From IMG/VR virus record IMGVR_UViG_3300045988_065566: a stretch of 17,001 nucleotides of DNA. One strand, written 5' to 3'. A program made the translations under genes and the position numbers. The stretch comes from a virus. Under the pieces are notes generated by a model, which made no database searches, was not told where the DNA came from, and saw only the letters and a program-made list of their open reading frames with translations. This document shows, one piece after another, positions 2,435 to 15,340 of this stretch; positions within the stretch are counted from its first letter, which is position 1, and each line of letters begins with the position of its first letter.

Positions 2435-3895
2435 ATGAAAGAGCGTCGAACGGCGGCAACAGACGGCGCAACACTATTGACGGATGACGGCGTGGAACCA
2501 TTGACGGCGAGCGCCGTTATCCGCCTTACCATGCTCGACCATCATACGCGCGTATGGTGCGCCCACGGATGGCAGGATATCAAACCCATAGCCGCCGAAC
2601 TGTTGAAACGACTCCCGTTGCAGTCGAATCCAGCCAAGGACGGTGTGTGGGGCACGTTCAACATTCGAGGCCACTTCTATAGTTTTCGTGTGCGTATGGG
2701 CGGCATCACCGTGGATTTTGTGGACGTGCGTAATGTCACGCGCGACGATGGATTGAATGTTTCACGTGAAACGTTTGGCGGTGCGGACGATTTGGAGACC
2801 ACGTGGAACATTGCGCAGGAATGCACCGCCCTGAATCTTAAGGGCACGACCATAGCTTCAATGGCGATGACCGACTACATTGATGGCGATTACGCCGGAT
2901 TCAAACGCCATTTTCCACCATTGGATAAAGATGTTTATCACCGTATGCGCCCCTCCTACTATGGGGCGATAGTGTACAGTAAGCCGGGCGAATACCGGGA
3001 CTGCCGAAGCTGGGACGTGAACAGCCTCTACCCGAGTATCATGCGTGATTCGCCCATGCCAGTAGGCTCACCAATATGGTATGGCGGCGAATATCAACAC
3101 GACAATGACTATCCACTACATATCGATGTCATTGCGTTTGATGCAAGGTTGAAACCGGGAAAAACGGCGACACTCACCAATATCCTACCCGTATGGGGGT
3201 ATGAGGGTGAACGCTTGGATAGTACGCTGGGCGTTGTCACCATGCCAGTTACGGATGTGGATTGGGAGACGCTGACCGAAAACTATGACATCCACGTGTG
3301 GGAGCATGTCGGCGGCTGGAAGTTACGCAAATCACACGGACTTTATTATACATACGTGGACAAATGGTTTCACGTGAAACAAACCGCGACGGGTGAGCGC
3401 AGGCAGATGGCGAAACTATTACTGAACTCGCTGGTGGGAAAATTCGGGGCCTCGCTGTACCGTCCCATGTTGCATCCGAAACCGTCTATGGATGGAGGCG
3501 TGGATTTTACCGTGGACAAACCCGAGTCGGCCAACAGTCTGGCATGGCTACCGACCGCCGCATATGTCAACGCCTATGGACGGCAAATACTATCCCGCGC
3601 CATGAACGATAACGCCGAGCGCGTGATCTACGCCGATACCGACGGCATGATACTAGAAGGACTGGACGCGCCCGCAGGCATGGAAACGGATGACCGAAAA
3701 CTAGGCGCGTGGAAAAACGACCACACCTATGAGAGGCTCCGTATCCTAGGCAATCGCAAATATTGTGGTGTGGAAACAGGCGGCGATACCGTCATGCGGC
3801 TGAGCGGCGTGCACCGCGCCGCCCCCATCCCCTATGATGAGTTTATATCCGGGTCACGCCATTTCAACGACGATGGCCATGCTTTTATGCTATAA
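2435..3895 (+). CDS. Protein-primed family-B DNA polymerase (phi29 gp2-like)
   Basis: Motif A WDVNSLYPS, motif B KLLLNSLVGKFG, motif C IYADTDG, and KxY (NRKYCG). Long collinear similarity to phi29 DNAP, e.g. DYPLHI, DKWFHVKQ vs DKWTYIKT, and TRVWCAHGW vs CRVWAYGY. The region between motifs B and C has TPR2-like length. Confidence 0.95.
   Translation: MKERRTAATDGATLLTDDGVEPLTASAVIRLTMLDHHTRVWCAHGWQDIKPIAAELLKRLPLQSNPAKDGVWGTFNIRGHFYSFRVRMGGITVDFVDVRNVTRDDGLNVSRETFGGADDLETTWNIAQECTALNLKGTTIASMAMTDYIDGDYAGFKRHFPPLDKDVYHRMRPSYYGAIVYSKPGEYRDCRSWDVNSLYPSIMRDSPMPVGSPIWYGGEYQHDNDYPLHIDVIAFDARLKPGKTATLTNILPVWGYEGERLDSTLGVVTMPVTDVDWETLTENYDIHVWEHVGGWKLRKSHGLYYTYVDKWFHVKQTATGERRQMAKLLLNSLVGKFGASLYRPMLHPKPSMDGGVDFTVDKPESANSLAWLPTAAYVNAYGRQILSRAMNDNAERVIYADTDGMILEGLDAPAGMETDDRKLGAWKNDHTYERLRILGNRKYCGVETGGDTVMRLSGVHRAAPIPYDEFISGSRHFNDDGHAFML
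2759..2772. repeat. Copy 1 of the 14-bp perfect palindrome GTTTCACGTGAAAC
   Basis: Exact 14-mer inside the polymerase gene, read as ..N V S R E T... Confidence 0.9.
3367..3380. repeat. Copy 2 of the 14-bp perfect palindrome GTTTCACGTGAAAC
   Basis: Exact 14-mer inside the polymerase gene, in a different codon phase (..W F H V K Q..). Confidence 0.9.
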
Positions 3896-3896
3896 T
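3888..3896 (+). promoter_or_regulatory. Extended -10 promoter candidate TGCTATAAT
   Basis: Perfect TGnTATAAT overlapping the polymerase stop codon (TAA 3893-3895). No good -35, which an extended -10 can tolerate. Confidence 0.4.
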
Positions 3897-3902
3897 ATCC
3901 GG

Positions 3903-4066
3903 TAGCGGGATGTGCGTCCCAAGCCGACTCGATGGCCCGACCGGCAGGCAAATCGGTAAGGCGAACTGGTCGGATGTAGACGTGCGTAGCCAACGCCCAG
4001 CGACGGCGAGGGAACCCGCACAGCCTAGCAATCCGGCACGGCGTCGTGATTGACGCCGTGCCTTTT
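3903..4066 (+). ncRNA. Candidate structured non-coding RNA, about 165 nt (pRNA-like RNA or late-operon leader)
   Basis: GC-rich gap bounded by the extended -10 (3888-3896) and a strong terminator (4035-4066). Possible helices are 3907-3916/4017-4026 and 3937-3944/3966-3973. The only ORF is a 47-codon P/R-rich frame with no RBS. The 5' end is only predicted. Confidence 0.35.
4035..4066 (+). terminator. Rho-independent terminator
   Basis: GGCACGGCGTC (4035-4045), loop GTGATT, GACGCCGTGCC (4052-4062), giving a perfect 11-bp GC-rich stem followed by TTTT (4063-4066). Confidence 0.8.
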
Positions 4067-4082
4067 ACTCTAAGAGGTGATT

Positions 4083-4427
4083 ATGGACGACACCGAAACC
4101 CACGACAAGCCGGACACCACGCCCGACGCTGAACCGGACGCCGAACCGACCGACGACAATACGCCGGACCCGGAGCTTGAAGCGCAGGACGACAGCGAAC
4201 CGGAGGATGCGGGCGACGACAAGAACGCCGACATGGCCAACCGTCTCAGCGCTTTGGAAGCGACCGTGGCGGAACTATCCAAAACCATTGAGGCGATGCG
4301 CGACGCCGCCGCAGACCACGTGTTGAACGATGGCCCGGACGGCGATGAGGAGCCGGACGCCACGGAAATGACCGACGATGACTACAACGGCACCTATTCC
4401 ACGTTCGATGACCTTTTTGAAGACTAG
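4083..4427 (+). CDS. Highly acidic protein, putative scaffolding protein (positional analog of phi29 gp7)
   Basis: RBS AAGAGGTGA (4072-4080) then ATG at 4083. About 114 aa, very rich in D/E/P, with a central helical segment (ANRLSALEATVAELSKTIEAMRDAAA). Lies directly upstream of the major capsid gene. Confidence 0.5.
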   Translation: MDDTETHDKPDTTPDAEPDAEPTDDNTPDPELEAQDDSEPEDAGDDKNADMANRLSALEATVAELSKTIEAMRDAAADHVLNDGPDGDEEPDATEMTDDDYNGTYSTFDDLFED

Positions 4428-4449
4428 TGATTAGGAGGGAATGATTATC

Positions 4450-6180
4450 ATGCCAACCACTCCAGTGGTGACGCCCAAACAGCAGTTGCGCCCGCTCACC
4501 GAATTCAACAACGCTCAAATCCTCAATATGATTCGTAACGAGGCATCTCCTGAATACCAACGGAGAATGCCCTCGGCCACTCAGATGAACATGGACCGCC
4601 AAATGGCTACGCTCATGTCCAGCACCCAACTCAAGAACGAGTTCTACTCGGCCTTGGTCAACCGTATCGGCGGTACGTATGTGAACACGTGGCGTTGGAA
4701 TAATCCGCTTGGCGTTTTCCAGCGTGCATCTCAGGCGTATGGCGATACGTGGCAGGAAATCGCCGTAGGTATGCCGCTCGCACAGGTATATGACCCGGAC
4801 GCGGAGTACTTGGGCGCGGACAACTTCCGCAAGTGGAAAATCGATGTGGACAGCCTTTACCATCGTCTGGACTTCGCCCACTTCTACCCCGCTACCACGG
4901 ATGACAAGACGCTCCAGCGCGCTTTCGCCTCAGAAAACGGTTTGGCCTCCCTTACTTCCCAGATTCTCACCTCCTGTTACAATGCGGCTGAGGTTGACTT
5001 GTTCGAGGCCATGTGCCACCAGTTCGTGGAATACGCGAAACTGGGCGGCTATTGGCGCGTCCACATGGGGCATGACCTTAACGACATGGGTTCGACGGAA
5101 ACCGACGCCCGCGACATGTTGCGCCAGATTCGCGCATGGGCCGACACGCTGAAATTCGTGTCTACCCGGTATAATGCGCGTCATATGCCGACGTTTGCCC
5201 GCCCCGACGAACTCGTACTGTTCTGCTCTCCCGAGGTTAAGTCGGCGCTTGACGTGCAGGGCCTCGCGACCGTGTTCCAGCGTACGGACGCTGAGCCGAC
5301 CATTGACCGGATTATCGTCATTCCACAGGACAGGTTCGGCATGGACGGCGTGCAGGCCATTCTTACTACTGACAAGTTTTTGATTGATATTCCCGTTATC
5401 AATGAGATGACCCAGCAGACGAACCCGGTGAACATCAACTCGGTCAACCATTATCTGCATGTCCAGCACATTATCTCGGTGTCCGGTTTCGCCCCGGCCG
5501 TCATGTTCTGGACGGGCGCGGGTTCCACCGCCAAGGTGGTGGCTCCTACCGGTACGACGGCCAAGACGCCGGCCTTCCAGCTTAAACTCGCCATGTACGG
5601 TGGCGGCACGTCCACCCCGTCGAACGTGGCGCGTGGCGGTGCGGTGCAGGTCATTGCGGATACGGCCATCACCAATGACGGTACGGCCACGTTCCGTTCG
5701 GACGCGGTCGAGTATCGTATTGGCGACACCGCCAAGCCGAAGAGCGATTACACGTACATTTCGCCCACCGGCGTACTGGTGGTCGGCCTTGACGAACCGA
5801 ACACCACTATCCCGGTAACGGCGACCGCATTGTACACGAATCCGGCGACGCCGGAAGTGCCGGGTACGGTGGCCGCCGCCCTGAGCGTGCCGGTGGTTGG
5901 CGACGGTATCATTGGATTCAGCCCGTCGATTATCGCGTCGATTGCCGTCAACGTCTCGAATGTGACTACGGGTCATACGGTTCAGGCGACTGCCGTAGCG
6001 ACTATGATTGACGGGCGAACCGCCGACGTTACCATGCAGGCCGCATGGACATCCGGCACCCCGGCCAACGCCACCGTGTCCGAGTCGGGTGTCGTTACCG
6101 GCGTCAAGGCGGGCGCGTCCGATATCACCGCCACGCTGTTCGGCGTATCCGGTAAGAAGAGCGTGACCGTGACCGCGTGA
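4450..6180 (+). CDS. Major capsid protein with C-terminal Ig-like (Big_2) domain (phi29 gp8-like)
   Basis: Position and size fit. The C-terminal roughly 80 aa (..VQATAVATMIDGRTADVTMQAAWTSGTPANATVSESGVVTGVKAGASDITATLFGVSGKKSVTVTA) is a classic Big_2 signature, as in phi29 gp8. AGGAGG at 4433-4438 favours ATG 4450 (11-nt spacing) over ATG 4441 (2 nt). Confidence 0.88.
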   Translation: MPTTPVVTPKQQLRPLTEFNNAQILNMIRNEASPEYQRRMPSATQMNMDRQMATLMSSTQLKNEFYSALVNRIGGTYVNTWRWNNPLGVFQRASQAYGDTWQEIAVGMPLAQVYDPDAEYLGADNFRKWKIDVDSLYHRLDFAHFYPATTDDKTLQRAFASENGLASLTSQILTSCYNAAEVDLFEAMCHQFVEYAKLGGYWRVHMGHDLNDMGSTETDARDMLRQIRAWADTLKFVSTRYNARHMPTFARPDELVLFCSPEVKSALDVQGLATVFQRTDAEPTIDRIIVIPQDRFGMDGVQAILTTDKFLIDIPVINEMTQQTNPVNINSVNHYLHVQHIISVSGFAPAVMFWTGAGSTAKVVAPTGTTAKTPAFQLKLAMYGGGTSTPSNVARGGAVQVIADTAITNDGTATFRSDAVEYRIGDTAKPKSDYTYISPTGVLVVGLDEPNTTIPVTATALYTNPATPEVPGTVAAALSVPVVGDGIIGFSPSIIASIAVNVSNVTTGHTVQATAVATMIDGRTADVTMQAAWTSGTPANATVSESGVVTGVKAGASDITATLFGVSGKKSVTVTA

Positions 6181-6186
6181 TATAAT
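6178..6186 (+). promoter_or_regulatory. Extended -10 promoter candidate TGATATAAT
   Basis: Perfect TGnTATAAT overlapping the capsid stop codon (TGA 6178-6180). Same arrangement as at 3888-3896. Confidence 0.35.
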
Positions 6187-6232
6187 GAGAGGGTGGCCGG
6201 CTGGCTACTCTCTATCACAGTGTGATACAGGA

Positions 6233-6273
6233 CAGTGCCCGGAGCGCAAGCCACGTGAGCGCTCCGGACACTG
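6233..6273 (+). other. Long imperfect hairpin with a CACGTG loop
   Basis: CAGTGCCCGGAGCGC (6233-6247) pairs with GCGCTCCGGACACTG (6259-6273): 15 bp with one C/A mismatch and an 11-nt loop AAGCCACGTGA. ACAGTG/CACTGT words recur at 6217, 6232, 6269 and 6276, which allows alternative pairings. Confidence 0.6.
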
Positions 6274-6304
6274 TGACAGTCGCCTAATCTGCGACATAAT
6301 AAAA

Positions 6305-6336
6305 GGGAGTGTTTCACGTGAAACACTCCCTTCTTT
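6305..6336. terminator. Intrinsic terminator built on a 26-bp perfect palindrome (contains copy 3 of GTTTCACGTGAAAC)
   Basis: GGGAGTGTTTCACGTGAAACACTCCC (6305-6330) is preceded by AAAA and followed by TTCTTT. The 14-mer core is at 6311-6324. Confidence 0.75.
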
Positions 6337-6350
6337 ATGGAAGGGATAGT

Positions 6351-8600
6351 ATGCTGAGAGATATCAACCCTAACGTCGAGGCGACGTTTAACTGGGCTCA
6401 ATGGACGCCCAACACGTCGCTGAAACTCTGTAATGTGCCGTGGGATAGTAGTTACCGTGACCTAGCCCGGTTCGAGTCACCGCAGAAACAACAGGAATGG
6501 TTTGACCGACGGCCCGGCATTGACAGGGTGCATGGAGTCATGCACATGTTCGGCCAACCCGTGCGCGTCGAACTGCCATTTAACGAGGCGTCCAACTACA
6601 ACTATGTCGTGGTGTATAACGATTACCCCGACTTGGAGGTGCCACGGTATTGGTATTATTTCATCAACCACGTGGATTACATCAATGCGTACACTACTCA
6701 GCTCACTGTACAGTTGGACGTTTGGCAGTCGTTCCAGCATGTACTTAGGTTTGGATCATGCTATGTGGTGCGAGGCCATATCGGCATTGCCAACGAAAAC
6801 CAGATGACCGATTATGGTCGCAGTTATCTTGCACTACCCGAAGGGCTGGACACCGGTAGCGAAATGGTGACGGTAAACCAACAGTACAAGTCTCTTATCA
6901 GCATGGACGGGAGAAATCTGAATTACGGCGTAATAGTCGTGAGCACGGTAGATTTGTCAGCGGACGCGGGCAATCAGGAAAAACCGTCTCTCACTACTGC
7001 GGGCGGCTCTCTGTTTGAGAACATGGCTAACGGTGCTGAAATACTGTACTTTAAGGACATCCAGTCTATCCGAGTGTTTATGGGAGTGGGCTCTACTTTT
7101 TCATGGATAACACAGGGTATTGTAAACATGTACATGATACCCTCTTTAGACGATGACTTTCTTAAGCAATCCGGCTATGTCGTAGATAAGCTGTTTGGGA
7201 AAACACTCCCTTCGGAATTAAATAATCGTATCTACCGTTTCCCCCGGTCGGCCACAAATGCGCCCAGCAGGTATGAAGACATTATTACCATTAATGATTT
7301 TCGTGATAATTTTAATATCCCTAAACGTTATAAAAACCTTAAAAAACTCAAATGCTACCCCTATTCTACTGTTGAATGCACTTGCTTGAATGGCACTAAT
7401 ATCACCTATAAGCCCGAAAATATCCAAAGCGATAATCTGGTTATTAGAGCGGTGCATAATTACGCGCCCAATGGCGCGCGCTTGAACTTTTACCCGGTTG
7501 GGTACAATAAGGCGGGTGCAAGCGAGATCGCTCCTCTTGATAAAAACAATGGGTTACCCATTGATAGCGGGGAAATGTTGGACGCCGCGTTTGGCATCAG
7601 CAATTTCCCTCAATTTGTGATAGTCAACAATGGTGCCCAGTTGGCAATGGCAAACAGTGCCTACACTCGTTCCTACAGTCAACAGTCCGCTGACTGGGCG
7701 TACCAAAAAGCGCAGATGGGCATCAGTCAGTCTCTTGCGGCCACGGCCATGCAAAACCAGTACAACACCCAAGCCAACAAACTCGCTATCGGCAACCGCA
7801 ACGCCAATAACGCGATACAAGCAACCTCGCTTAACACCAGTCTGGACAACACAACGTATATCAACAATCAGCGAGCTGACCTCGCACAGCTTAATAACGT
7901 GGTTAACGGCGTGGTCGGGGTGGCGGGCAACGCCGCTTCTGGCAATGTCGGGGGCGCGGTATCGGCATTAGGCGGTGCGGTTATGAATGGTGTCAACACT
8001 GAGGCAAACCGCAGTATCAACAATACCGCCGCCCAACTTTCCACGGCGAACTCGCTGAGTACCAACGCGGCCACAACAAGTCAGGCCAACACATACGGCT
8101 CTCAGACTACAGCGCTTTCAAACCAGTTGGCCCAAAATATGGCGGATATGAACGCGGATTACGCTCAACGTTCCGCGTTCGGAGACTATCAAAACACCAT
8201 TGCGGGTATCAATGCACAGGTACAGCAGATGCAATTAACACCCCCGACCACCTCCGGCGCCATCGGCGGAGACGGTTTTAACCTCGCAAACGGTATTGTC
8301 GGGGTGTTGGTTCGATTTAAGACGTGCGCACCCTCAGCTCTGCGGAGCGTCGGAGAGTACATGTTGCGTTACGGGTATTTTATCCAGCGTTTCATCACGC
8401 CGCCGCAATCGCTGGAATGTATGACAAAATTCACTTACTGGCAGATGCAAGAGTGTTACGTGCGAGGTGATTTGCCCGAGCAGTATCGGCAGACCATTAA
8501 AGGCGTGTTCGAGTCTGGGGCTACTATATGGACTAACCCGGATGATATCGGCGTGACCGATTGGGCGGATAACGACCCATTGCCGGGCATCTCATTCTAG
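6351..8600 (+). CDS. Tail knob / distal tube protein (phi29 gp9-like)
   Basis: N-terminus matches the gp9 pattern: NVPWDSSYRD..EWFD vs phi29 DVPFSNDYKNT..NWFN, and YNYVVVYND....YWYYFI..VDYIN...TQLTVQLDVWQSF vs SYIMFQNADYGNKWFYAFV..LEF.....YVHFEIDVLQTWMF. The YPY motif (KLKCYPYSTVE) is present. I use ATG 6351 after GGAAGGGA. The track GTG at 6309 lies inside the terminator. Confidence 0.8.
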   Translation: MLRDINPNVEATFNWAQWTPNTSLKLCNVPWDSSYRDLARFESPQKQQEWFDRRPGIDRVHGVMHMFGQPVRVELPFNEASNYNYVVVYNDYPDLEVPRYWYYFINHVDYINAYTTQLTVQLDVWQSFQHVLRFGSCYVVRGHIGIANENQMTDYGRSYLALPEGLDTGSEMVTVNQQYKSLISMDGRNLNYGVIVVSTVDLSADAGNQEKPSLTTAGGSLFENMANGAEILYFKDIQSIRVFMGVGSTFSWITQGIVNMYMIPSLDDDFLKQSGYVVDKLFGKTLPSELNNRIYRFPRSATNAPSRYEDIITINDFRDNFNIPKRYKNLKKLKCYPYSTVECTCLNGTNITYKPENIQSDNLVIRAVHNYAPNGARLNFYPVGYNKAGASEIAPLDKNNGLPIDSGEMLDAAFGISNFPQFVIVNNGAQLAMANSAYTRSYSQQSADWAYQKAQMGISQSLAATAMQNQYNTQANKLAIGNRNANNAIQATSLNTSLDNTTYINNQRADLAQLNNVVNGVVGVAGNAASGNVGGAVSALGGAVMNGVNTEANRSINNTAAQLSTANSLSTNAATTSQANTYGSQTTALSNQLAQNMADMNADYAQRSAFGDYQNTIAGINAQVQQMQLTPPTTSGAIGGDGFNLANGIVGVLVRFKTCAPSALRSVGEYMLRYGYFIQRFITPPQSLECMTKFTYWQMQECYVRGDLPEQYRQTIKGVFESGATIWTNPDDIGVTDWADNDPLPGISF

Positions 8601-8615: not shown

Positions 8616-9572
8616 ATGTCTAGGTCGAGGAAAAATCAGAATCGTAGGGGCGGCGCGTTGCATCCGCGTGGCAATTACGCCAAGGCGCGCGCCGCCGACC
8701 TTGACGCAATGTACTATCACCTGTTGACTGAACTGGCACTGAACCGGCTCAGCTGGCGGGGATTGCCGCCCACCGTGGATGAACGATGGCTGGAAATGTG
8801 TCTGTGTGAATACGGTTGCGCGTTGTTTTTCGAGGACAAACGTATAGGCCGGTTCCTCGTAACGCAGGCCGGGTATCAAGGCCGGTTGAACGTGTATAAT
8901 AATCCGACGTGTTTCGAGCCGGTCGGGGTCAACTATCATTACAAGCAACTCAAGGCGGGCACGGAGTGCATCCCCATTTGGGATAATCGTATGCGCATGA
9001 GTTTCAAGGATATTCTATGGCAGTATGCGCGGCGTCTTGCGGACATTGACAAGGCGTATGATGTGAACTTGGAGAGCCTGAAGCTTCCGACCATTATCAC
9101 CGCCGACCCGCGTACCAAGCTCACCGTACAGAACATGTTGCAACAGCGGCAGGACGGGCAGGATTATATCATCGGCTATGATTCGCTTGACCCCGGTAGC
9201 ATGTTCCAGCCGTGGCCCAACACCACCCCGTATCTGCTGGACAAGTTTATCCAGCAAAAAGCGCAGGTGACTAATGAGGTGTTGGGGTATCTCGGTATCC
9301 AGTCTTCCGGCACGGAGAAAAAAGAACGGCTCATATCGGATGAGGTGGCGCAAGCCAACGAGAAAACGGACTTGTTCCGCCTGAGTTTCCTCAAGGCCCG
9401 GCAGGAGGCGGCAACCCAAATAAACCGTTTGTGGCCATCTCTTAATGTCTGGGTTGAGTATGCGGACGTGCAAAGCTCCGGCGTACCCAACGCACTGGAC
9501 TCCAGCGCGACCGGCACGACTGATATTGATATGCCCGCCTCGTATGACGCGGGTATCGGAGGTGTATTGTGA
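8616..9572 (+). CDS. Portal / head-tail connector protein (phi29 gp10-like upper collar)
   Basis: Collinear matches to phi29 gp10: WRGLPPTVD vs WENLPPTIN, EKKERLISDEV vs EKKERMVTDEV, FLKARQEAATQINRLW vs FLKSREEACEKINELYG. The basic N-terminus and length (318 vs 309 aa) are also similar. Confidence 0.9.
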   Translation: MSRSRKNQNRRGGALHPRGNYAKARAADLDAMYYHLLTELALNRLSWRGLPPTVDERWLEMCLCEYGCALFFEDKRIGRFLVTQAGYQGRLNVYNNPTCFEPVGVNYHYKQLKAGTECIPIWDNRMRMSFKDILWQYARRLADIDKAYDVNLESLKLPTIITADPRTKLTVQNMLQQRQDGQDYIIGYDSLDPGSMFQPWPNTTPYLLDKFIQQKAQVTNEVLGYLGIQSSGTEKKERLISDEVAQANEKTDLFRLSFLKARQEAATQINRLWPSLNVWVEYADVQSSGVPNALDSSATGTTDIDMPASYDAGIGGVL

Positions 9573-14181: not shown

Positions 14182-14226
14182 TACAACGACAGACCGGTAG
14201 ATATCCACCGGTCTGTCACTGTTGTA
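14182..14226 (+). other. Long hairpin after the hydrolase gene (no U-tract)
   Basis: TACAAC+GACAGACCGGT (14182-14198), loop AGATATCC, ACCGGTCTGTC (14207-14217), then a 3-nt bulge and GTTGTA (14221-14226). The 11-bp core is perfect and 6 further bp extend it. Confidence 0.6.
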
Positions 14227-14235
14227 TGGTAAAAT
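14227..14235 (+). promoter_or_regulatory. Extended -10-like box TGGTAAAAT upstream of the ATPase gene
   Basis: TGnTAAAAT lies immediately 3' of the hairpin. ATG 14243 begins 7 nt after the hexamer, a leaderless-type geometry. No SD precedes ATG 14234 or 14243. Confidence 0.3.
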
Positions 14236-15340
14236 GGATGTTATGGAGAGGCTGTTAGCGGAGGGCGATTATTACGATTATGGGAGCGTATTATCCTATC
14301 ATGCGCCTTGGATGTTCGTAATCGGCGCGCGCGGTCTCGGAAAAACCTATGGTGCCAAAAAACTTGTCATCGGTGACTGGATTAAAAAACGCTGGCAATT
14401 CATCTACTTACGCCGTACTGCCGAAGAACAGAAAAACAAGGGCACATGGTTCGCTGACATAGCGGAACAATACCCGGAATTGGAATTCCGCGTATCCGGG
14501 AACCAAGCCGAATGTCATTGGCTGAATGACAGGGACGCCACCACGGACAAGCACGGCAAGACACGCCCCACATGGCATGTCATGGGGTATTTTATCGCCC
14601 TCAGTCAGGCAGGACAAGTGAAATCAGTCGCATACCCCAAGGTGCGAACCGTAATCTTTGATGAAATATTCCCCGATAATATGCATTACCTTGGAGGCGA
14701 GGTCACGGCGCTTGAGGAATTCTATAATACCGTTGACCGCTGGAACGACAGGGTTCGCGTCATCATGTGCAGTAACGCCGTAACCCTCGCTAACCCGTAT
14801 TTCAGCGCATTCGGTATTAACCTCAAGCCACAACTTGATAATCACACGCAATATCAACGGTATTGCGACGGATTTATCATAGTGGAATTAGCCGATTACG
14901 GCGGGTTCAGCGCCAAGGTGGCCACATCGAAATTCGGACAGTTCCTACGCAAATATGACGAAAATTATGCGAACTATGCAATCAACAACGACTTTAGGGA
15001 TAACGCCAATACTCTCATTAGTGATTTTAACAACGCCGGTTATGCATTCACACTAAGAACCACCGAATACGGTATTTTTAATGTATATCAGCAATTAAGC
15101 GATACAGATGAAGTGTTGTATATCATCACCAAAAAACAGCCGAAAATCACCAGAGATTTTACGTTTGATTACCGACTGGTCGATAATGATTGCATCATGC
15201 TCAAACGCTCCGACGATGTGACGCAGAAAATACTAAACGCCTATCGTGTCGGACGATTGCGTTTTGAGACACCACAAATCAAGGCGGAATTCAGCATGAT
15301 ACTTGGCGGCTTACTACAACAATCAGGTATAAGAAAGTGA
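14234..15340 (+). CDS. DNA encapsidation (packaging) ATPase, phi29 gp16-like
   Basis: Collinear with phi29 gp16: VLSYHAPWMFVIGARGLGKTYG (Walker A) vs MLSYDRILNFVIGARGIGKSY; QFIYLRR; YPKVRTVIFDEIF (Walker B) vs YPNVSTIVFDEFI; IMCSNAVTLANPYF vs CLSNAVSVVNPYF; GRLRFE vs GYLRFD. The start is uncertain: TTG 14222, ATG 14234 or ATG 14243. Confidence 0.92.
   Translation: MDVMERLLAEGDYYDYGSVLSYHAPWMFVIGARGLGKTYGAKKLVIGDWIKKRWQFIYLRRTAEEQKNKGTWFADIAEQYPELEFRVSGNQAECHWLNDRDATTDKHGKTRPTWHVMGYFIALSQAGQVKSVAYPKVRTVIFDEIFPDNMHYLGGEVTALEEFYNTVDRWNDRVRVIMCSNAVTLANPYFSAFGINLKPQLDNHTQYQRYCDGFIIVELADYGGFSAKVATSKFGQFLRKYDENYANYAINNDFRDNANTLISDFNNAGYAFTLRTTEYGIFNVYQQLSDTDEVLYIITKKQPKITRDFTFDYRLVDNDCIMLKRSDDVTQKILNAYRVGRLRFETPQIKAEFSMILGGLLQQSGIRK

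Follow-up and report, generated by a model that had tools for sequence, protein, structure and literature searches.

The 17,001-nt stretch of viral DNA analyzed here (IMG/VR record IMGVR_UViG_3300045988_065566; the window) covers most of the genome of a phi29-like picovirus, and its largest non-coding gap separates the gene for a protein-primed DNA polymerase from that for a scaffold-like protein. We are nearly certain that this gap contains a real RNA gene, conserved and structured, and by analogy the RNA of about 160 nt that it would produce is probably a packaging RNA of the prohead RNA (pRNA) type, the counterpart of the pRNA of phage phi29. To our knowledge, no RNA other than pRNA serves as an essential moving part in a motor that packages viral DNA. 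A preliminary description of the window had proposed a divergent pRNA in a non-Bacillus picovirus, with a read-through leader of the late genes as the alternative. The first proposal is favored by the selection acting on the gap, its covarying helices, a pRNA-like layout, covariation of a bulge and a loop in a sister clade, the presence of genes for gp10 and gp16 homologues, and the position and promoter of the gene.

Close relatives of the window are numerous in IMG/VR (capsid proteins 91-97% identical), and all of these keep the gap at full length with 85-92.5% identity. Among 78 relatives the mean pairwise identity of positions 3916-4035 was 0.93-0.95, compared with 0.70-0.90 in the coding sequence on either side. 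As the gap, kept in about 100 distinct relatives, is more conserved than its coding flanks, it appears to be under purifying selection, and judged by sequence comparison such conservation is not the pattern of an intergenic spacer.

The check for conserved or covarying structure in the syntenic gaps of relatives, suggested in the preliminary description, gave both. RNAalifold folded 79 sequences of the window clade (the window and its close relatives) into a Y shape in which 99.3% of the cells were paired; most double changes within this clade fell in the 3' hairpin, together with three pairs of the core. More-diverged subclades were sought by protein search, which gave groups with capsid proteins 85%, 82%, and 77% identical, and their contigs were then compared. 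Two covariance models were built, R1 from the window clade and R2 from the clade of phage BD811 (below). R1 recognized the RNAs of the 77% clade over their full length with E values of 1e-14 to 1e-16. In the joint alignment with that clade 93.1% of the cells were paired, compared with 34-40% when the partners were slid, and 25 of the 56 pairs showed compensatory double changes relative to the 77% clade. These changes were found in five of the seven pairs of arm 1, in one of the three pairs of its inner helix, in three of the four pairs of arm 2, and in 10 pairs of P1, the terminal helix. The joint alignment was fitted to the R1 model, which favors the structure, but the independently rebuilt helices are still many. 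The G-U pairs showed that the RNA is encoded on the plus strand. While the helices changed, unpaired parts stayed constant: the loop GUAAGG, the linker AUGUA(G/A)A, the GGC of the arm 1 bulge, and the GCC of the arm 2 loop. Within the window clade, the arm 2 pair 3987/3993 varies among U-A, C-G, and U-G, and one G-C to U-A change was also seen in arm 2. In the BadAztec clade, represented by only two sequences, P1 carries two compensatory changes.

In the resulting consensus, Domain I spans 125 nt (3905-4029) and its 5' and 3' ends are joined in P1. The helices proposed in the preliminary description (3907-3916 with 4017-4026, and 3937-3944 with 3966-3973) both lie within this covariation-supported structure. 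Folding of the single sequence gave a minimum free energy of -79.7 kcal/mol (z = -3.35). One pairing of that fold, 3910-3918 with 3980-3988, was rejected, as it would destroy the covarying arm 2. The 3-nt bulge ACC of P1 reads CUC in the 77% clade and has only a resemblance to the CCA bulge of phi29 helix A. The junction linker, AUGUAGACGU in the window, is AUGUAAAAU in the 77% clade.

The gap measures 187 nt, as stated before, from the polymerase TAA (3893-3895) to the next ATG (4083), which stands behind AAGAGGTG (4072-4079). The perfect extended -10 box said to open it is likewise in place, TGCTATAAT at 3888-3896 overlapping the polymerase stop codon, and conservation of the RNA sequence starts at 3904. 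A -10 motif of the form TG(C/T)TAT(A/G)(A/G)T is common to the window, 77%, and BD811/BP1 clades and to BadAztec. In the window TGNTATAAT occurs four times compared with 0.48 copies expected; two of the three plus-strand copies overlap or just precede the end of a gene, and the other lies within the preceding open reading frame (ORF), ~100 nt from its 3' end. The gap is GC-rich, as described (61.5% G+C compared with 53.1% for the window), and the statement that it holds no credible ORF survived comparison with relatives. A 47-codon plus-strand ORF (3910-4053) is not credible because its start is not kept (the ATG is GTG in most relatives), it suffers internal 1-nt indels, and its changes are pairwise compensatory rather than codon-patterned. 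No transfer RNA or transfer-messenger RNA was found, and a DNA search of the gap against phage records gave no match. At gathering score no Rfam family, riboswitch and leader families included, matched the window, and at E values up to 10 there were only two matches, on the minus strand and attributable to chance.

Given a conserved structure, we compared its layout with that of phi29 pRNA. The latter has a Domain I (residues 1-117) with paired ends, a 13-nt linker, and a domain II; helix A carries a three-base bulge, and Domain I contains a three-way junction (PMC5066667). Its CE and D loops pair between molecules, with two G-C pairs seen by nuclear magnetic resonance, and known pRNAs have only ~12% sequence similarity while structure is kept (PMC5066667). 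The placement of the phi29 gene given in the preliminary description was accurate: it lies downstream of the polymerase gene in the same orientation, and its A1 promoter reads TGCTATAAT. The window RNA shares this setting, including a putative sigma-A type promoter of its own, in a phage that likewise encodes a gp10 connector and a gp16 ATPase; the homologues claimed for both proteins are indeed present (Table 1). It also shares a Domain I of about 120-125 nt with its ends paired in a long bulged helix and a three-way junction. The first arm consists of a helix, a 5' bulge, a helix of 3-4 bp, and a 6-nt loop; a small hairpin makes up the second arm, its loop being complementary to the bulge of the first. 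Next come a single-stranded linker and a 3' hairpin domain, domain II of phi29 being a terminator hairpin. Every pRNA hallmark that sequence can reveal has a counterpart in the predicted window RNA, that of the bulge/loop pairing being complementary but invariant bases.

The arm pattern was also obtained by RNAfold without manual input. The phi29 pRNA gave ((((((.(((.........((((......)))))))))))))...((((((.....)))))), the RNA of BD811P2 gave ((((((.(((.......((((.......)))))))))))))....((((((.....)))))), and an RNA of the 77% clade gave ((((((((......((((......)))))))))))).........((((....)))). All three have a helix, a 5' bulge of 6-9 nt, a 4-bp helix, a loop of 6-7 nt, a direct return, and a short linker, after which a small hairpin leads onto the terminal helix. 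The arm module, with its elements in the same order, has a length of 62 nt in both phi29 and BD811P2, 60 nt in the window, and 58 nt in the 77% clade. The setting differs in other respects. The phi29-type hosts are Bacillus and those here are probably Actinobacteria (Bifidobacterium-type); the phi29 gene is at a genome end, whereas the window gene lies between the polymerase and scaffold genes; and in the window clade the RNA runs straight into the late genes, with no promoter and mostly no U-tract.

The bulge of arm 1 and the loop of arm 2 are complementary through GGC (3947-3949) and GCC (3989-3991), both invariant in about 100 distinct sequences in which the flanking loop bases vary. In the 77% clade the complementarity is extended to UGGCA/UGCCA, and the phi29 pairing is AACC/GGUU. 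In phi29 and BD811P2 the complementary bases occupy the bulge's 3' end and a 5-nt loop. A complementary bulge and loop peculiar to each clade is the pattern that would be expected of a self-assembling RNA.

In a sister clade the corresponding contact covaries. This clade comprises the phages BD811P1-3 and BP1 together with about 80 relatives from metagenomes, and an unannotated gap of 228-230 nt lies in the same place. The gap opens with TGCTATAAT over the polymerase stop codon, and its RNA folds into the same Y-shaped layout with a 3' hairpin having a GUGAUU loop, as in the window. The fold was 99.1% paired, with double changes in 24 of 40 pairs, and none of 500 shuffles was as good. Arm 1 has a 7-nt 5' bulge (ACCACCA or AUUGCCA), 5 nt of which can pair with the 5-nt arm 2 loop (GUGGU or GUGGC), and this pairing held in 98.4% of cells. 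At its variable pair we counted G-C 59 times, G-U 8 times, and A-U 7 times, with no mismatch and never A-C; all eight sequences with A in the bulge carry U in the loop. A U-rich tail follows the hairpin in 78 of 82 phages of this clade, and a second extended -10 box for the late genes (mostly TGATATAAT) lies downstream in 82 of 82. As a U-rich tail is followed by a second promoter box, the BD811/BP1 RNA is, by its predicted signals, a transcription unit of its own. Its sequence cannot be aligned with that of the window RNA, which differs from it also in lacking such a true terminator, a second promoter, and a 5-bp covarying pairing.

Comparable RNAs are indicated in other picoviruses. In the Arthrobacter phages Anjali, Mendel, Tillums, and Swim and the Curtobacterium phages Prophecy and Reje, a gap of ~100-300 nt directly ahead of the scaffold gene combines the same arm module with a long terminal helix and a strong terminator. 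The bulge/loop pairs are CAGCU/AGCUG (Arthrobacter), UUGCA/UGCAA (Curtobacterium phage Prophecy), CGC/GCG, and GCU/AGC; the arms were parsed by eye, and the per-sequence shuffle values of 0.016 to 0.47 are only indicative. The RNA keeps its place in front of the capsid and packaging genes in picoviruses of Bifidobacterium, Arthrobacter, and Curtobacterium alike, although their capsid proteins are only ~35% identical. In Anjali, Tillums, and Swim extra sequence separates the terminator from the scaffold gene, and Tillums and Swim have a small annotated ORF there.

Reviews of 2016 and 2024 confine pRNA to phi29 and related Bacillus phages (PMC5066667; PMC11476376), in accord with the preliminary description. 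That restriction needs softening, as a pRNA of Streptococcus phage Cp-1 is mentioned in PMC6266182 (citing Martin et al. 1996). According to the same paper, a covariance model other than RF00044, derived from the Bacillus pRNAs of Nf and GA-1, fails on Cp-1. As described there, the putative Cp-1 pRNA resembles the window RNA in belonging to a picovirus outside the Bacillus group and in escaping Bacillus-based covariance models, and differs in its Firmicute host; the two are set side by side by description only. Our literature search found no report of pRNA in Bifidobacterium, Arthrobacter, or Curtobacterium phages. What is new here is a pRNA architecture and context with no detectable sequence homology, in a new host phylum and with a different link to late transcription.

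From the layout and its genomic setting we infer transcription of the RNA, its binding to the prohead, ring formation, and a role in packaging, as follows. Transcription would start about 8 nt past the extended -10 box at the polymerase stop codon. Domain I would then form P1, the long terminal helix, and a three-way junction from which the two arms extend, and the 3' hairpin (Domain II, 4035-4062) would close the RNA. On the prohead, several copies could attach to the connector at its narrow, basic end and form a ring in which the GGC of the arm 1 bulge of one molecule pairs with the GCC of the arm 2 loop of the next. The P1 helices, projecting outward, would dock the gp16 ATPase, which itself has no portal-binding domain. 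In the window clade transcripts would continue into the scaffold and capsid genes, and the small RNA would come from partial termination or processing.

This last step follows from the organization of the 3' end. The preliminary description gave an 11-bp stem plus a UUUU terminator at 4035-4066; the hairpin and UUUU are present, and the stem has 12 pairs if the closing G-U is counted. Positions 4035-4046 pair with 4051-4062, UUUU occupies 4063-4066, and this is the top terminator-like site of the window. The UUUU is peculiar to the window, since a run of four T residues after the hairpin occurs in only 3 of 79 clade members; at least five T residues in the 8 nt after the hairpin occur in 7 of 79. 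The hairpin ends 19-23 nt before the ATG in 79 of 79 relatives (20 nt in 69), and none of the 79 has an extended -10 box between the hairpin and the scaffold ATG. BadAztec and the 77% clade have the same arrangement. As there is no intervening promoter and mostly no U-tract, the late genes are probably read through the RNA, the window-clade hairpin usually not being a full terminator. A free RNA would then have to arise by partial termination or processing.

Several observations weigh against a pRNA. The Rfam pRNA model (RF00044, Phage_pRNA), a search with which had been suggested, gave no match in the window at E values up to 10, nor in BD811P2, BadAztec1, Mendel, or Av-1 (E up to 1-10), and scored 145 bits on the phi29 control; this model, whose gathering score is 100 bits, is a narrow one. 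Our own models do not cross either: R1 gave no match in BD811, BadAztec, Av-1, or Mendel, and R2 gave none in the window, also with filters off. What connects the clades is therefore their synteny and layout and not a homology that can be detected. In the window RNA the junction linker has 10 nt, compared with UUU (3 nt) in phi29, and arm 2 has only 4 bp, compared with six. The complementary stretch of the window RNA consists of three G-C pairs; about 5% of composition-preserving shuffles give three base pairs (P = 0.049), and the invariance of GGC and GCC in the window clade means that covariation cannot show their pairing. The contact could be either between molecules, as in pRNA, or an intramolecular pseudoknot, and sequence cannot tell which. 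Between the window-clade RNA and the late genes there is no promoter and mostly no terminator tail, unlike in phi29. Finally, no three-way junction RNA was seen in the gap of Actinomyces phage Av-1 (L086 1320-1460), where we saw only an annotated promoter, a short stem-loop, and a strong terminator ahead of ORF 8.

The RNA could instead be a trans-acting phage small RNA with another role, such as host takeover, a defense decoy, or host-protein binding, its likeness to pRNA being convergent. A clearly structured and conserved RNA that has no detectable homology to pRNA would fit such a role, and the invariant loops GUAAGG and GUGAUU and the invariant junction linker could be binding sites for proteins of whatever kind. 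We consider this possible but unlikely given the constant place of the RNA in front of the capsid and packaging genes in genera with such diverged capsid proteins, the complementary bulge/loop pair that each clade has for itself, and the presence of a phi29-type ATPase and connector that use such an RNA.

Rather improbable, in our judgment, is a cis-acting 5' leader of the late operon that governs read-through (attenuation or put-like processive antitermination), mRNA stability, or translation, with no free RNA acting elsewhere. The preliminary description had offered a late operon driven by this promoter and gated by terminator read-through. The read-through part is likely for the window clade, where the scaffold and capsid genes would have to be transcribed through the RNA, and the conserved extended -10 box agrees with it; gating leaves the conserved three-way junction unexplained. 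As a sole function it also fails for the BD811/BP1 RNA, a separate unit with its own U-rich terminator and a second promoter. A leader has no need for a helix closing the 5' and 3' ends or for a covarying bulge/loop pairing, and would not account for the detailed match to the pRNA layout; no Rfam riboswitch or leader family matched. The put RNA of phage HK022 is two stem-loops of ~70 nt in total. It resembles the window RNA as a promoter-proximal structured RNA ahead of a terminator-like hairpin and downstream genes, and differs, by general description only, in having no terminal helix or loop-loop complementarity. The idea that the gap lacks a functional RNA and consists of a promoter, a terminator, and a spacer folding by chance can be dismissed: the promoter-like box and terminator-like hairpin are the most obvious features of the gap, but the spacer is more conserved than the adjoining genes, compensatory double changes occur in 25 of 56 pairs, and the hairpin is no canonical terminator in most relatives.

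Returning to a pRNA, we suggest tentatively, and would not press the point, that an RNA of this type is an ancestral and widespread part of the phi29-type motor in which each genus has its own interlocking pair, and that the window clade makes it as the 5' part of the scaffold/capsid transcript, coupling its supply to late expression. The data suggest that RNA-dependent DNA packaging reaches beyond the Bacillus phages. If so, an RNA component would be general to picoviruses with a short gp16 ATPase and the origin of pRNA would predate the split of Firmicutes- and Actinobacteria-infecting phages. The 180-230 nt or so left unannotated in all these genomes would also be explained. There would be natural G+C-rich three-way junctions and interlocking loop pairs to compare with the phi29 RNA of RNA nanotechnology, and the cultured Bifidobacterium phages BD811P1-3 and BP1 would allow a direct experimental test.

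Table 1 Positions of the RNA, its parts, and neighboring genes (window coordinates unless a record is named; RBS, ribosome-binding site)
Feature	Position	Strand	Basis or remark
Predicted extended -10 promoter TGCTATAAT	3888-3896	+	predicted RNA start ~3903-3905
P1, 5' strand (long interrupted terminal helix, pRNA helix A equivalent)	3905-3935	+	RNAalifold, covariation
P1, 3' strand, including 3-nt bulge ACC at 4014-4016	3997-4029	+	RNAalifold, covariation
Arm 1 (C/E-like)	3937-3973	+	covariation; element strings checked contiguous
Arm 1 helix, 7 bp	3937-3943/3967-3973	+	
Arm 1 5' bulge, 9 nt, GCAGGCAAA with invariant GGC 3947-3949	3944-3952	+	
Arm 1 inner helix, 3 bp	3953-3955/3962-3964	+	
Arm 1 loop, 6 nt, GUAAGG	3956-3961	+	
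Junction linker AUGUAGACGU	3974-3983	+	nearly invariant in window clade
Arm 2 (D-like hairpin)	3984-3996	+	stem 4 bp, 3984-3987/3993-3996
Arm 2 loop AGCCA with invariant GCC 3989-3991	3988-3992	+	
Single-stranded linker AAUCC between the two domains	4030-4034	+	5 to 9 nt among relatives
Domain II-like 3' hairpin and UUUU	4035-4066	+	12 pairs, loop UGAU within conserved GUGAUU; 5 pairs with double changes
RBS AAGAGGUG and ATG of first late gene (scaffold-like)	4072-4085	+	context, outside the RNA
Protein-primed type-B DNA polymerase	2435-3895	+	Pfam and PHROGs
Scaffold-like acidic ORF, 114 aa	4083-4427	+	directly ahead of capsid gene, as phi29 scaffold gene
phi29-type major capsid protein	4441-6180		Pfam and PHROGs
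Tail knob protein	6309-8600		Pfam and PHROGs
Connector, gp10 homologue	8616-9572	+	Pfam PF05352, 3.8e-42
Packaging ATPase, gp16 homologue	14222-15340	+	Pfam PF05894, 1.7e-41, profile positions 6-319 of 331
BD811P1-3/BP1 RNA gene, ~150 nt	L001 4725-4951; L083 1960-2189; L084, L085 1958-2185		unannotated in GenBank
Arthrobacter/Curtobacterium RNA loci	L293 1836-2137; L087 1966-2137; L294 1811-2137; L295 1808-2137; L296 1942-2135; L297 1940-2035		

The genes of the window are nearly all on the plus strand. The polymerase is short (486 aa), and its Pfam match begins only at profile position 170. The connector is 31% identical to phi29 gp10 and would be the docking partner of the RNA; its N-terminus, MSRSRKNQNRRGGALHPRGNYAKAR, is strongly basic, as is the phi29 counterpart, MARKRSNTYRSINEIQRQKRNR. 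The gp16-type ATPase would be the partner of helix P1. An amidase was also identified with Pfam and PHROGs, and the 114-aa ORF ahead of the capsid gene matched no Pfam or PHROG family. Directly upstream of the polymerase lies ORF 1397-2422 (341 aa), which has no Pfam or PHROG match. Its position makes it the probable gene for the terminal protein, which in phi29 (gene 3) lies ahead of gene 2. The host is probably a Bifidobacterium, since the sole named phage related in DNA sequence is Bifidobacterium phage BD811P2 (78% across the endolysin gene).

The loops of the RNA gave some further observations. The GUGAUU loop of the 3' hairpin (window 4046-4051; L001 ~4876-4881) is identical in the window and BD811/BP1 clades despite stems and Domain I sequences that cannot be aligned; the 77-83% subclades have AUUAUU or GUUAUU instead. 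That GUGAUU is conserved suggests a possible protein-binding or processing signal. A pairing of this loop with AAUC of the upstream linker was rejected, as the linker varies without compensation. The GUAAGG loop (3956-3961) is complementary to the sequence just 3' of the hairpin in most relatives (ACUUACUUU or AUCUACCUU, in the region 4063-4075), directly ahead of the scaffold RBS; this could be chance, or could link the fold of the RNA to translation of the first late gene.

Two other sites of the window carry an extended -10 box. The third plus-strand extended -10 box, TGGTATAAT, is at 2324-2332, about 100 nt upstream of the polymerase ATG (2435) in the 3' end of ORF 1397-2422. In the region 6178-6308, TGATATAAT overlaps the capsid gene stop codon (TGA, 6178-6180), and the 128-nt gap that follows, upstream of the tail gene, has strong hairpins (minimum free energy -58.2 kcal/mol, z = -5.66). 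This gap (6181-6308) was rejected as pRNA-like, having simple hairpins that vary among relatives and no junction RNA. The region looks like a promoter with hairpin punctuation, and one of its hairpins, CCCGGAGCGC...GCGCUCCGG, is kept in four relatives.

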